DNA of 28,548 nucleotides. It comes from Dehalococcoidales bacterium. Its GTDB lineage: Bacteria; Chloroflexota; Dehalococcoidia; Dehalococcoidales; ARS1013. A program made the position numbers and the translations under genes. The notes under the pieces were generated by a model. That model was not told where the DNA came from. It did no database searches and saw only the letters and a program-made list of their open reading frames with translations. Location of the stretch: NCBI GenBank assembly GCA_030641585.1, contig DAOWHE010000066.1, forward strand, positions 1 to 28,548, written 5' to 3'. Shown here piece by piece: positions 17,162 to 21,848 of this stretch (positions are counted from its first letter, which is position 1; every line of letters begins with the position of its first letter).

Positions 17162-18334
17162 GTGAAACTGGTAGTTGCTGGTTTCGGGCAGTGTGGCGGC
17201 AGGATTGCCGAAGAATTTGCCCGACTGAATAAAAGGGCACGTAGACACCGTGGCATTGAAATAGTTATTGACGCCTTTGCCGTTAATACAGATTCGGCTG
17301 ACCTGGCCGGGCTACGCGCTATAAAGACCGACTACCAGCACAGAATACTTATTGGCGCTGGCAGCACCCACGGTCATGGTGTGGCTAAGATAAGTGAGGC
17401 TGGTGCCGAGATAGCCAAAGAGGACGCTGATAAGGTTATTGATGCCATGAGAACCACTAAACAGTTCTTTGAAGCCGATGCTTTCCTATTGGTAGCTGGG
17501 ACTGCTGGCGGCACCGGTTCAGGGGTAACACCGGTCATGGCCCAGGTGCTCAAGCAGCGCTTTGATAAACCGGTTTATGCCCTGGCAGTCCTTCCTTTTG
17601 AGCATGAAGAGGAGACGGAGGAAAGGGCACTCTATAACACGGCGGTATTTCTCAAATCTACCTATTCAGTGGCTGATGCTGTCATCCTTGTTGACAATCA
17701 GAGATATGTCAGGAAGGACTTCTCACTGAAAAACAACCTAGACAAAATCAATGCCTTGATAGTTGAACCTTTCTATAATCTGCTTTGCGCAGGTGAAGAG
17801 AAAAAGGTGAAGCACATCGGTGCCAGAATGCTTGATACCGGAGATATAGTAAACACCCTAGCTGGTTGGACGGCGATTGGCTATGGTAAAGCGCCGTTAC
17901 CATTTAGGACGCTACTTTCAAGGTGGACAGGTAACTTCATGCAGAAGAGTGCCCAGACCCATCTGGGCGTCCAGGCAATGGATGAGGCTATTAGTGAGCT
18001 ATCAATCGGGTGTAGCTCCCAAGACGCTTGCCGTGCCCTGTATCTGGTTTCGGCAGCGGCCAGGATGATAAATGTCGACTTGGTCAAGGAACTTGGCAAT
18101 CATCTTAAGAATTTGGTGCCAAAGGCTGTTATCAGGAACGGGGACTACCCCAGGGGGAAGGGTGTGCTTGATATAACCTTAGTCCTGTCGGAGCTCAGTG
18201 ATGTTGAAAAGGTGAGAAACTACTATAGCAAGTCAGTCGACTTGGCTAAGGAAATCAGCAAAAGACAAAAGGTGAAAGCGAGCAAGGTTGAGCTGACGGA
18301 AGAGGCAGGCAAGGATATTCCGACACTGCTCTAG
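17162..18334 (+). CDS. Tubulin/FtsZ-superfamily GTPase, CetZ-like rather than canonical FtsZ
   Basis: T1 GFGQCGGRI, T2 AVNTD, T3 GHGVAK, signature AGTAGGTGSG, T6 DNQ. The T7 region reads MLDTGDIVNTL and lacks the FtsZ GxxNxD motif. GTG start with a GGAGGTGA RBS. Confidence 0.85.
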   Translation: MKLVVAGFGQCGGRIAEEFARLNKRARRHRGIEIVIDAFAVNTDSADLAGLRAIKTDYQHRILIGAGSTHGHGVAKISEAGAEIAKEDADKVIDAMRTTKQFFEADAFLLVAGTAGGTGSGVTPVMAQVLKQRFDKPVYALAVLPFEHEEETEERALYNTAVFLKSTYSVADAVILVDNQRYVRKDFSLKNNLDKINALIVEPFYNLLCAGEEKKVKHIGARMLDTGDIVNTLAGWTAIGYGKAPLPFRTLLSRWTGNFMQKSAQTHLGVQAMDEAISELSIGCSSQDACRALYLVSAAARMINVDLVKELGNHLKNLVPKAVIRNGDYPRGKGVLDITLVLSELSDVEKVRNYYSKSVDLAKEISKRQKVKASKVELTEEAGKDIPTLL

Positions 18335-18384: not shown

Positions 18385-18403
18385 GGGGGGATGGGGGGGG
18401 GGG
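18385..18403 (+). repeat. G6-AT-G11 homopolymer tract over the RBS of the surface-protein gene
   Basis: GGGGGG AT GGGGGGGGGGG TGATAA ATG(18410). Confidence 0.8.
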
Positions 18404-18409
18404 TGATAA

Positions 18410-19675
18410 ATGAAAAAGTTTGCTGTTGGTTGTGCTGCGGCGATAGGTGTGTTTGCAGTGGTGATAGTAGGCATCGCCCTTGCCACCACAATCTTTGATT
18501 TTAATGGTACAACTGATACAACTCCCACTGATACAACTCCCACCCAGACTACCCCGGCTGAAACAGGGCCTGTGGAGACTACTGAGCCGGCTACTCCGAT
18601 TGAAGTGGAGTTTGTAGACGCGCAGAGCCGAGGCCTGATTGAATACAGTGCTTATGGCCGAGCTTCACTTGAGCAGTTTCAACTGAACATCACATCAGAG
18701 AGTGACGACACTCTGGAAATTGTTATCTTGCCTGGGACGATATTTGATCCGCAGGCGGCCTACTATATACAAAGCTTGGTAGTTATAACAGAGAAACTGG
18801 TATTGTTGGACCCGCATGAGGCAGTCGAGTCGCTCAACATTGATGCCGGTACTATCAACATGCAGTTAGATACACCCGGTGAGGATGATAGTCTGGTGTT
18901 GAGCATGACCCCTGCCAGCGGGGACCTGATGCTGTTACTAAATCTACCCGATTTTCAGGACTTTGATTTTCGCATCCAGCAGTTTGCCATTTGGACACTC
19001 ACGGATAATCCTGGGCTTAACGAATACCCTGATACTGGCCCCAGTGACGAGGAGATAGATAATATCCGCTCTCTCTTTGAAATAGCAGGAATCCCGACTG
19101 AAGAATATCGGGTGCTACAGCCGCCGGTTTACGTAGAGCTAATAGAGGCACAGAGCATGGGGCTTATTGGGGTTAGTGCCCGTGGTACAGGCTCCATTAA
19201 CCGCATCCAGATGAGCCTGACATCGAACAGCGATGATGTTCTAGAGGTTGCCATCTTGCCTGGGACGATATTTATCTCATCGGCAGCCGGTGTTCAGAGC
19301 ATGGTAGTTGTAGCAGAGAAACTGGTATTGCTGGACCCATATGAGGCAGTCGAGTCGGTCAACATTGACGCCGCCTGTGCCAATATGGAGCTGGATGCGC
19401 CTGAAGAGAGTAACAGCCTGGTGTTGAGCACGACCCCGGCCAGCGGGGATCTAGTGCTATTACTAAATCTACCCGAGTTTCACGATGAGACTCTTCGCGT
19501 CCAGCAGTTTGCTGTCTGGACTATTACTGATAATCCTGGGCGTGGTGGATATATGGGTATTGCTACCGGCTTTGCTATATTTGGAACCGGCCCCCGTGAT
19601 GAAGAGATAGAGAGAATACGGGTCCTCTTTGGAAAGGCAGGGATCTCAACTGATAAATATCAGGCACTGCTCTAG
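18410..19675 (+). CDS. Membrane-anchored or secreted acidic protein: N-terminal TM or signal, Thr/Pro linker, two tandem ~175-185 aa homologous domains (possible thioester domains)
   Basis: Hydrophobic N-terminus MKKFAVGCAAAIGVFAVVIVGIALA and linker TTDTTPTDTTPTQTTP. Duplicated blocks ILPGTIF, EKLVLLDP.EAVES.NIDA, PASGDL.LLLNLP and QQFA.W..TDNPG; DNA offset 525-528 nt. Confidence 0.8.
   Translation: MKKFAVGCAAAIGVFAVVIVGIALATTIFDFNGTTDTTPTDTTPTQTTPAETGPVETTEPATPIEVEFVDAQSRGLIEYSAYGRASLEQFQLNITSESDDTLEIVILPGTIFDPQAAYYIQSLVVITEKLVLLDPHEAVESLNIDAGTINMQLDTPGEDDSLVLSMTPASGDLMLLLNLPDFQDFDFRIQQFAIWTLTDNPGLNEYPDTGPSDEEIDNIRSLFEIAGIPTEEYRVLQPPVYVELIEAQSMGLIGVSARGTGSINRIQMSLTSNSDDVLEVAILPGTIFISSAAGVQSMVVVAEKLVLLDPYEAVESVNIDAACANMELDAPEESNSLVLSTTPASGDLVLLLNLPEFHDETLRVQQFAVWTITDNPGRGGYMGIATGFAIFGTGPRDEEIERIRVLFGKAGISTDKYQALL
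18512..18541 (+). repeat. Perfect 15-nt tandem repeat (2 copies) encoding TDTTP
   Basis: ACTGATACAACTCCC at 18512-18526 and 18527-18541, followed by the degenerate copy ACCCAGACTACCCC. Confidence 0.85.
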
Positions 19676-19753: not shown

Positions 19754-19804
19754 TGGCTTTAGCCAGATAGGCTATTGTACCTTAACTTATAGAGCTTTAA
19801 TATA

Positions 19805-19906
19805 ACCTTCCGAGTTGCTTTTGCCTAAGGGCATGAGGCTTACGGCGAGCAACCGGTTAAGGTGTAGCGGGAAACTGCTGCGCCGCCCGTGTTTGGAAAG
19901 GAGGGT
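19805..19906 (+). ncRNA. Moco RNA motif riboswitch aptamer, P3-less (tungsten-cofactor-associated) variant
   Basis: P1 ACCTTC/GAGGGT; conserved CCGAG; P2 GTTGCT/AGCAAC enclosing CCTAAG; P4 GGTGTAGCGG-GAAA-CTGCTGCGCC; 3' signature CCCGT...TTGGAAAGGAG. It lies directly upstream of Mo/W transporter genes. Confidence 0.85.
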
Positions 19907-19941
19907 GTATAGAGGGTGATTTATACTTTCTATACAGTAGT

Positions 19942-19970
19942 GTGCCTCCTTTTGGAGGCACTTTTGTTTT
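19942..19970 (+). terminator. Intrinsic terminator (riboswitch expression platform)
   Basis: GTGCCTCC-TTTT-GGAGGCAC followed by TTTTGTTTT. Confidence 0.85.
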
Positions 19971-20001
19971 ATCTGGCATTTACCACATGGCGAGGTGTTC
20001 T

Positions 20002-20805
20002 ATGAGGTCTTTAACTGGTATGCATCTTAGTATGAGTCCCATGAAGCTTGTGTTTATTTTATTGGGCTCATTGATTGTGTTGTTCATTTTTGTACCATTG
20101 TTCAAGATGATGTTCTCATCCAGCCCGGCTAGTTTACTTGATACGCTTGGAGAAGGGGAAGTAGCCGCCTCCATCTTGCTCACCCTTTATGCCGCCCTTC
20201 TGGCTACTGTTATTGGCTTCTTGCTGGGCATTCCTCTGGCTTATCTTCTGGCGCGCCATGAATTTCCCGGTAAGCGGCTCGTTGAAGGGCTCATTGATTT
20301 GCCGATAGTGGTGCCTCACAGCGCTGTGGGTATAGCCCTTCTCTTCGTCTTTGGCCAACGCTTCTTTTTTGGCAAGGTATTTCACGCCATGGGCATTGAT
20401 TTCGTTGGTGAGGTTGCCGGTATTGTCATCGCCATGCTTTTTGTCAGCGTTCCTTTTCTGATAAATGCAGCCAAAGAGGGCTTCAAGAAGGTGGATGTCA
20501 GACTGGAAAAGGTGGCTCGTTCCCTCGGCGCCTCTCCGTGGCAGTCCTTTCGCCGGGTAACCCTGCCACTGGCTCGGGGGAGCATTCTATCCGGTACAGT
20601 GATGATGTGGGCCAGGGGTATAAGTGAATTCGGTGCCGTCCTTATTCTGACCTATAATCCCATGATAGCCCCAATTCTGGTCTACGAAAGGTTTGAGACA
20701 TTCGGTCTGGATTATGCTCTGCCGGTAGCGGCAGTGCTTGTCCTGGTATGCCTGGTCATATTTGTCACCTTAAGAGCTATTGCCCATCGCTGGGAGGCAA
20801 AATGA
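20002..20805 (+). CDS. wtpB: Tungstate/molybdate ABC transporter permease (WtpB/ModB family)
   Basis: LIDLPIVVPHSAVGIALL, the EAA-like loop LEKVARSLGASPWQSFRRVTLPL, and WARGISEFGA. The start is moved downstream of the terminator (ATG 20002, GAGG RBS); later ATGs are possible. Confidence 0.85.
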   Translation: MRSLTGMHLSMSPMKLVFILLGSLIVLFIFVPLFKMMFSSSPASLLDTLGEGEVAASILLTLYAALLATVIGFLLGIPLAYLLARHEFPGKRLVEGLIDLPIVVPHSAVGIALLFVFGQRFFFGKVFHAMGIDFVGEVAGIVIAMLFVSVPFLINAAKEGFKKVDVRLEKVARSLGASPWQSFRRVTLPLARGSILSGTVMMWARGISEFGAVLILTYNPMIAPILVYERFETFGLDYALPVAAVLVLVCLVIFVTLRAIAHRWEAK

Positions 20806-21848
20806 TAGAGATAAAAAACCTAAGTCTTTCTCTGGGCGGCTTCTTTCTTGAGGATATTAACTTAGAAGTCAAGGACGGTGAGTATTTCATACTCTTGGGG
20901 CCAACCGGTGCCGGTAAAACAGTGCTCTTAGAGGCTATTGCTGGACTTTGTCCGATAAAAAGTGGCCAGATAAAGGTCAATAACCGGGATGTAACCTTAC
21001 TCGGTCCAGAGAAAAGAAACATTGGGTTTGCCTACCAGGACCATATGCTCTTCCCCCATTTGACAGTGGCTATGAATATATGCTTCGGATTAAGGCATAG
21101 GGATGAGTCAAAGCGGGAAATAGAAGCCACTGCCAGTCGGCTGGCTGAGCTTCTTGGTATTTCTCATCTTATGAACAGGAAGCCTGATACCTTAAGTGGT
21201 GGCGAAAGCCAGAAAGTGGCTCTGGCTCGAGCCCTGGCCATAGAACCGGAGCTCCTTCTCCTTGATGAGCCACTTAGCGCCCTTGACCCGGAGACGAGGG
21301 AGGCGACTCAGCGAGAGCTGAGACAACTGCATGACCAACTGAAGGTAACCACCATACACGTTACCCACGATTTTGAGGAGGCGGTTGCCCTGGGTGACCG
21401 GATAGCGGTTTTAGGTAACAGTCACATAATCCAGACGGGAACCCCGGAACAGATATTTCGCAGCCCAAATTCAGAGTTTGTCGCCCGTTTTGCCCTGGCT
21501 CGTAATATCTTTGAAGGCGATGTCCAGGATGGCCGAAGCGGGCAGGCTACTTTTAGTGTCGGTGGGACGAAGCTGGCAGTAGTCACTGACCTGCGCGGTC
21601 AGCTACATGCCACTATTCGCCCCGAGGACATTCTGATTTCCAGGAAGCCTCTGGCCTCCAGTGCCCTCAATTCTCTTTCCGGCACCATCACTCATATGGC
21701 TGATAAGGGTTCAATTATCTATCTGACGGTAAGTGTGCCGCCGGATTTTAGCTGTCTTATCACTCGCCGCTCATATGAGGAGATGGGTTTGAGAGAAGGA
21801 ATGACGGTTTACATAACGTTTAAGGCGTCCGCAGTTCATATATTTTAA
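20802..21848 (+). CDS. wtpC: Tungstate/molybdate ABC transporter ATPase with C-terminal TOBE domains
   Basis: Walker A GPTGAGKT, signature LSGGE, Walker B LLLDEP, and HVTHD. ATG 20802 overlaps the permease stop, with a GGAGG RBS. Confidence 0.9.
   Translation: MIEIKNLSLSLGGFFLEDINLEVKDGEYFILLGPTGAGKTVLLEAIAGLCPIKSGQIKVNNRDVTLLGPEKRNIGFAYQDHMLFPHLTVAMNICFGLRHRDESKREIEATASRLAELLGISHLMNRKPDTLSGGESQKVALARALAIEPELLLLDEPLSALDPETREATQRELRQLHDQLKVTTIHVTHDFEEAVALGDRIAVLGNSHIIQTGTPEQIFRSPNSEFVARFALARNIFEGDVQDGRSGQATFSVGGTKLAVVTDLRGQLHATIRPEDILISRKPLASSALNSLSGTITHMADKGSIIYLTVSVPPDFSCLITRRSYEEMGLREGMTVYITFKASAVHIF

Follow-up and report, generated by a model that had tools for sequence, protein, structure and literature searches.

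A duplicated, predicted surface-exposed domain with a co-varying cysteine and glutamine in a Dehalococcoidales bacterium: a candidate internal thioester and a relationship to ARPP-1

The locus and its genomic setting

The window, by which we mean the whole stretch of 28,548 nucleotides analysed here (contig DAOWHE010000066.1 of a Dehalococcoidales bacterium, assembly GCA_030641585.1), contains at positions 18410..19675 of the forward strand, stop codon included, an ORF for a two-repeat surface protein of 421 aa, P0001. On the same strand, the gene located upstream (17162-18334, +) belongs to the tubulin family and encodes a CetZ-type C-terminal domain (Pfam Tubulin 1e-29, CetZ_C 7e-16). CetZ proteins are best known from archaea. 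Relatives of this CetZ-like gene are present in 29/31 genomes of Dehalococcoidales, with one to five copies each and three in the host genome.

The synteny between the CetZ-like gene and the surface-protein ORF is restricted to close Dehalococcoidales relatives. Furthermore, the profile of the domain family carried by P0001 matches 2/31 genomes of the same order and 0/2 other genomes of the same genus. From this distribution, the surface-protein gene is accessory. The CetZ-like gene and the surface-protein ORF both finish with an 11-bp direct repeat, CACTGCTCTAG (copy 1, 18324..18334, +, and copy 2, 19665..19675, +, respectively). In a genome of the same genus (L078, 4870-4945), where the flanks are 90-94% identical, the stop of the CetZ-like gene is joined straight to the DNA found downstream of the ORF; the junction holds exactly one copy of CACTGCTCTAG, and the DNA lying between the two copies of the window is absent. 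The single copy, together with the missing intervening DNA, therefore indicates a clean deletion of the surface-protein gene in that genome, in which a convergent DegV-like gene fills the vacated slot.

No terminator-like site was found between the CetZ-like gene and the surface-protein ORF. A run of 11 G (18393-18403), with a shorter one of 6 G ahead of it (18385-18390), ends 6 nt before the ATG at 18410. The 11-G run may serve as a ribosome-binding site, and homopolymer tracts before surface-protein genes can change length and switch expression. Downstream of the ORF, a Molybdenum/Tungsten cofactor riboswitch (19796-19919, +; Rfam RF01055, 69.1 bits, E 7e-16) precedes ABC transporter genes (19942-21848), with a terminator-like hairpin at 19942-19961. 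Across 42 loci of the domain family, no recurrent neighbour gene was retrieved.

Anatomy and distribution of the repeated domain

P0001 starts with a hydrophobic membrane anchor (residues 4-29; 18419..18496, +) preceded by Lys-Lys, and continues with a Thr/Pro-rich linker, or stalk (residues 34-63; 18509..18598, +), repeat 1 (residues 60-240; 18587..19129, +) and repeat 2 (residues 236-421; 19115..19672, +). The domain is about 185 residues long, and in it a small helical part comes after a beta-sandwich. The two repeats share 58% identity (E 7e-74), confirming the domain duplication that an earlier note on this DNA had described; the anchor and the linker likewise agree with its view of a protein displayed outside the cell on a transmembrane segment and a Thr/Pro stalk, and the motifs that it had quoted are all found at the residues it gave.

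These motifs are, in repeat 2, CANMELDAP (residues 323-331), which belongs to the wider motif AACANMxLDxP and contains Cys323 (codon 19376..19378, +), QQFAVW (residues 365-370; 19502..19519, +) and the terminal YQALL (residues 417-421), containing Gln418 (codon 19661..19663, +). In repeat 1, the cysteine position is occupied by Thr148 (codon 18851..18853, +) and the Gln418 position by Arg234, and QQFAIW is found at residues 190-195. A second glutamine motif, VQSMV, had been missed by the earlier note. It contains Gln296 (codon 19295..19297, +), retained in repeat 1 as Gln121 (codon 18770..18772, +), and is far better conserved than Gln418. Besides Cys323, P0001 contains a single cysteine, C8, within the anchor.

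Scans of P0001, of each of its repeats and of 150 aligned family domains against Pfam and NCBIfam gave chance-level matches only (e.g., Vault_3 and Transposase_21), no model of either library covering the domain, and a profile search of PDB sequences with the domain returned nothing meaningful. The family is nevertheless large. A word-indexed search retrieved 131 relatives, and an exhaustive profile search retrieved 2,647 clusters (50% identity) at E <= 1e-3, and 1,140 at E <= 1e-10. Among named genome records, the carriers are all metagenome-assembled. The closest are Dehalococcoidales and Dehalococcoidia (74% identity), and the others are Anaerolineae, Chloroflexia, Caldilineaceae, Limnocylindrales, Bathyarchaeia, Gemmataceae, Prosthecobacter, Acidobacteria, Fimbriimonadaceae, Actinomycetes and Clostridia.

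An N-terminal hydrophobic segment is present in 172 of the 197 family proteins whose N-terminus is complete, and in 169 of these 197 the domain ends at most 12 residues from the C-terminus, while the linkers of the family are composed of 24% Thr and 17% Pro. Together, the N-terminal segments, the Thr/Pro linkers and the C-terminal position argue that the repeat family is an exported module, usually located at the tip of a stalk.

A conserved cysteine and glutamine, and their loss in one repeat

Conservation was counted in 270 near-full domain copies aligned to the family profile. Cys323 and Gln296 are both kept in 178/183 single-domain copies, 42/44 second repeats and 7/42 first repeats, counts that overstate the number of independent events because the decay comes mostly from one large clade. 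When all columns were ordered by how much less conserved they are in first repeats than in intact domains, Cys323 dropped from 0.97 to 0.24 and Gln296 from 0.99 to 0.50; no other column with a conservation of at least 95% in intact domains decays. In contrast, Gln366, Trp370, Asp374, Asn375, Tyr381, Glu399, Tyr417, Met298 and Met326 are still conserved in first repeats, Gln366 being present in 269/270 copies and Trp370 in 268/270. Ala324, the neighbour of the cysteine, is replaced by the bulkier Ile, Met or Leu in first repeats. Two observations that the earlier note had made on this protein are supported: the cysteine, which is near-invariant in the family (97% of intact domains), is lost in repeat 1, and a helix motif resembling TQxxPhiW is kept in both repeats.

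In a maximum-likelihood tree, P0001 falls within one large two-repeat clade in which first and second repeats separate, and much of the decay therefore follows a single duplication. Nevertheless, different replacements occur within this clade (Ser, Cys or Lys for Gln; Ser, Gly or Thr for Cys), and there are separate tandem lineages. The first repeat is disarmed in P0038/P0123 and in P0014; P0127 and P0133 have an armed first repeat and a disarmed second one; and both repeats are armed in P0122 and P0125. All of these proteins are anchored at their N-terminus. The idea that the armed copy is always membrane-distal was rejected, as P0127 and P0133 are armed in their first repeat despite the N-terminal anchor. 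The rule is therefore one armed and one disarmed copy, in either position. Judging from the sequences, this combination recurs in separate duplication lineages.

Seven copies present a cysteine at the glutamine position and a serine at the cysteine position (e.g., ...CCDMVV with ...ASMNM), namely those of P0012, P0019, P0022, P0025, P0032, P0038 (first repeats) and P0148. In these swapped copies, the thiol has apparently shifted to the partner strand.

In 144/183 single domains and 29/44 second repeats, the domain has no cysteine other than the conserved one, and a search for a conserved histidine across the domain columns found none (maximum 19% His). A lone cysteine and the lack of a conserved histidine argue against both a structural disulfide and a Cys/His active site. 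We consider it quite likely that Cys323 and Gln296 constitute the functional centre of the domain and that repeat 1 has been inactivated.

Other roles of these residues have to be weighed against this pattern. The domain could be a purely non-covalent binding or structural module, in which the cysteine and the glutamine merely stabilise the fold, and the matches obtained by fold comparison with the PDB, which are weak and mostly generic beta-sandwiches, would be in line with it. However, first repeats drop both residues yet keep the other conserved ones, with 58% identity between the repeats of P0001, indicating that the fold can do without them; residues with a purely structural role would not be lost selectively from one member of each tandem pair. 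This explanation is therefore improbable. Likewise, the glutamine and the cysteine are flanked by the almost invariant Met298 and Met326, respectively, and the lone extracytoplasmic cysteine is conserved, as could be expected of a ligand or redox residue, either in a Cu(I)-type site formed by Cys323, Met298 and Met326 and capped by Trp370, or as a thiol engaged in an intermolecular disulfide or in redox sensing. Nevertheless, both methionines are kept in Cys-less first repeats (31/36 and 33/36), which suits core packing rather than a metal site; moreover, no histidine is conserved, and the coupled loss of Gln296 would be left unexplained. We find a ligand or redox role quite improbable.

AlphaFold2, run on repeat 2 with the 150 aligned domains, gave a model with a mean pLDDT of 95.2 and a pTM of 0.89 (model numbering is protein numbering minus 235). 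The strands of the beta-sandwich extend to residue 104 of the model, and the helices occupy residues 112-175. Cys323 (model 88) is placed at the end of a long strand (78-88), Gln296 (model 61) at the start of a short strand (60-65), Gln366 and Trp370 (model 131 and 135) on a helix (127-139), and Gln418 (model 183) in a short C-terminal helix.

The proximity of residues was judged by mean-field DCA on the 270 copies, and again without the first repeats (228 copies). The top pairs correspond to sensible helix-helix and hairpin contacts. The pair 61-88 (Gln296-Cys323) ranks 5 of about 16,000, and 21 when the first repeats are excluded. Around it, in the analysis without first repeats, the pairs 62-90 (14th), 66-86 (23rd), 64-86 (32nd) and 63-88 (34th) form a ladder, to which 66-83, 59-92 and 65-84 also belong. 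The residue sums along this ladder, 149-152, are the signature of antiparallel pairing, and the top 400 pairs include 9 from the ladder box vs 3.2 expected by chance. In addition, the pair 66-130, which ranks 2nd, ties the glutamine strand to the QQFAVW helix, while 87-137 and 89-139 connect the cysteine strand with the same helix. The ladder and the helix pairs thus suggest that Gln296 and Cys323 lie opposite one another on neighbouring strands, to within about one rung. As judged from covariation, the glutamine and cysteine strands would run next to each other in antiparallel orientation, beneath the invariant QQFA(I/V)W helix.

The earlier note had instead proposed Gln418 as the bonded partner of Cys323, as in a canonical Gram-positive thioester domain (TED). 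The sequence YQALL does resemble the PhiQzetaPhiPhi motif of these domains, and the C-terminal tail shows some coupling with the cysteine strand (pairs 88-184 and 86-176). However, the pair 88-183 (Cys323-Gln418) ranks 3734, that is, without coupling, and position 418 is occupied by Q in only 67 (25%) of the 270 copies, by R in 86 (32%) and by K in 38 (14%); among 35 Cys-bearing second repeats of the first sequence set, 21 have K there and 8 have Q. Unconserved and located in a helix, Gln418 is therefore not the partner of Cys323, and a canonical domain with a Cys323-Gln418 thioester is extremely improbable. The joint change of both positions in repeat 1 (Thr148 and Arg234), which had been taken as the covariation of a bonded pair, is not meaningful at a position as unconserved as that of Gln418. 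Similarly, the co-conservation that the earlier note had suggested looking for in homologues is recovered as far as the near-invariant Cys323 is concerned, whereas the residue covarying with it throughout the family is Gln296 instead of Gln418. In repeat 1 of P0001, the counterpart of Gln296, Gln121, is still there despite Thr148.

The reading that we favour, with a probability of roughly 45%, is an internal thioester between Cys323 and Gln296 in repeat 2, through which the protein would attach covalently to a target, repeat 1 being a disarmed spacer. The N-terminal anchor would hold the protein in the membrane, and the Thr/Pro linker would extend the two domain copies outward. In repeat 2, Cys323, at the end of the long strand, and Gln296, on the neighbouring antiparallel strand, would lie with the QQFAVW helix packed over both. 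On folding, Cys323 and Gln296 would form the internal thioester with loss of ammonia (NH3), and an amine or hydroxyl of a target could then attack it, leaving the target fixed to Gln296, as in Gram-positive TEDs. Repeat 1, with Thr148 in place of the cysteine, would most likely act as an inert spacer or as a non-covalent binding module. What was computed is how the protein is built, how its residues are conserved and how the strands pair; the bond and its reactivity we infer.

Relationships with ARPP-1 and with Gram-positive thioester domains

In profile comparisons, the closest relative of the family is ARPP-1 (PF20208), represented here by 32 sequences from 31 Planctomycetota genomes. The alignment of the two profiles with hhalign has a probability of 70% and an E-value of 4.1e-5 over 119 columns, and a separate script hhalign run scored 34.8, vs <=22 for the reversed control and <=17 for 20 column-shuffled controls. 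Gln296, Cys323 and Gln366/Trp370 align with the ARPP-1 invariants Q100, C122 and Q168/W172. The order of secondary structures is shared, as is the succession of Gln, 22-27 residues, Cys, 43-46 residues and Q..PhiW, and a fold search of the ESM Atlas retrieved ARPP-1 clusters at TM 0.65 and 0.54.

In contrast, the ARPP-1 invariants R102, E124, R127 and H315 have no counterpart in the family domain, which stops after the helix equivalent to ARPP-1 ~168-182 and thus lacks the C-terminal half of ARPP-1. The PF20208 model matched neither the 150 family domains nor any protein of the whole host genome. The contexts also differ: ARPP-1 is mostly tied to ADP-ribose, HIRAN or WYL conflict systems, whereas the family is exported on Thr/Pro stalks, and its 42 loci displayed no recurrent neighbour linking it to ARG, HIRAN, WYL or deacetylase genes.

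Planctomycetota frequently carry ARPP-1, which was found in 81/251 of their genomes searched, often in several copies (loci L047-L077). The invariants of our sample, in the numbering of the L048 protein, are G97, Q100, R102, C122, E124, R127, Q168, W172, G217 and H315.

According to Iyer, Burroughs, Anantharaman and Aravind (2022; PMC9503650), ARPP is unrelated to known domains and its Cys and Gln are absolutely conserved; these authors proposed that it acts as an enzyme or as an SRAP-like cross-linker to sugars. By analogy, Cys323 could be a catalytic or substrate-capturing nucleophile, with Gln296 as a helper forming the oxyanion hole or contacting the substrate and with no pre-formed thioester, and the domain could work on sugars or on polymers of the cell envelope, either as an enzyme or as a covalent trap. 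The profile alignment, which exceeds its controls with the key residues in register, and the ESM Atlas matches support this possibility, as does the published proposal itself. However, four ARPP-1 invariants (R102, E124, R127 and H315) are missing, and the family has neither a conserved histidine nor a general base decaying together with the cysteine. In addition, just two residues relax in the inactivated copies, fewer than an enzyme pocket would predict, and no conserved neighbour gene hints at a substrate. We regard such a nucleophile as unlikely, but as the strongest competitor of the thioester.

The relationship with ARPP-1 could also be reconciled with the Cys323-Gln296 thioester. We tentatively raise the possibility that the family represents a third, motif-permuted class of thioester domains, in which the Gln strand precedes the Cys, that shares ancestry with ARPP-1 and has members in Chloroflexota, Bathyarchaeia, Planctomycetota, Verrucomicrobiota, Acidobacteriota and other groups, ARPP-1 being likewise thioester-based. 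If so, ARPP-1 would capture nucleophiles covalently through an internal Cys-Gln thioester within ADP-ribose-centred conflict systems, providing a concrete mechanism for this domain.

To our knowledge, Cys-Gln thioesters of bacterial surface proteins used for covalent attachment have been demonstrated only in Gram-positive adhesins. If the Cys323-Gln296 bond is real, this chemistry would also exist in wall-less Chloroflexota from the environment and in archaea, the bond-forming glutamine could come from a strand on either side of the cysteine, and a large unnamed family (the 2,647 clusters above) would gain a testable function. Compact, self-activating covalent binding modules would also be useful tools for protein ligation.

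In Gram-positives, to which TEDs are exclusive according to Walden 2015, the cysteine lies in the motif [YFL]C-Phi-zeta on strand C, a TQxxPhiW helix provides a Gln and a Trp that contact the backbone of the cysteine, and the bond-forming glutamine lies in the weak motif PhiQzetaPhiPhi on strand Q, after the helices; the cysteine and this glutamine are the sole universally conserved residues (Walden 2015; Miller 2018). The likeness to TEDs claimed by the earlier note stands only in part, as a weak resemblance at the fold level. Membership of a TED family by sequence was not recovered: the TED models PF08341, PF20610, PF26764 and TIGR03934 matched neither P0001 nor the 150 family domains, the sole trace being TQXA_dom with E 0.21 over 10 residues. 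Against an alignment of class II TEDs (the pLS20 TIE family), hhalign scored 14, below its reversed control of 16 and therefore at noise level; its best local alignment puts Cys323 on the thioester cysteine but, being noise-level, is not counted as evidence. Foldseek, one of the comparisons that the earlier note had recommended, retrieved no TED, and a fold search with a predicted ARPP-1 model did not retrieve TEDs either. Nevertheless, six TED structures were the sole two-subdomain matches in the PDB fold comparison. The host genome has no PF08341 genes, an absence that is little informative since the control genomes also lack them.

The negative scans with TED models, the noise-level class II comparison and the Foldseek and ARPP-1 model searches that gave no TED weigh against the Cys323-Gln296 thioester, as do the ARPP-1 relationship, given the enzyme or sugar cross-linker proposed for that domain, and two differences from the TEDs compared here (class I and II, Cpa, SfbI, CpTIE, FNE, BaTIE, SaTIE and EfmTIE86). 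First, VQSMV fits the PhiQzetaPhiPhi motif but lies 27 residues before the cysteine, whereas the Gln strand of TEDs comes after the helices; in having the Gln before the Cys, the family domain is unlike every described TED. A conserved glutamine after the helices, as TEDs have, was sought and not found, Gln418 (25% conserved, helical) being the sole candidate. Second, the cysteine is preceded by Ala (A-A-C-A-N) instead of Tyr, Phe or Leu.

Nevertheless, several features of the family domain are, or may be, like those of TEDs. Its predicted beta-sandwich and helical part may correspond to the beta-sandwich or barrel and the helical subdomain of TEDs, and in the model the cysteine is situated at the end of a strand, right before the helices, perhaps as in TEDs. 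The helix motif of the family, [QRK]QFA[IV]W, fits TQxxPhiW and sits on a helix as in TEDs, although its first position is Q, R or K and not T; in line with a Q..PhiW helix that adjoins the cysteine, the QQFAVW helix is coupled by DCA to both the Cys strand and the Gln strand. As in TEDs, a PhiQzetaPhiPhi motif is carried on a strand, a cysteine and a glutamine are the key conserved residues, and the domain is predicted to be displayed at the far end of the stalk of a surface protein.
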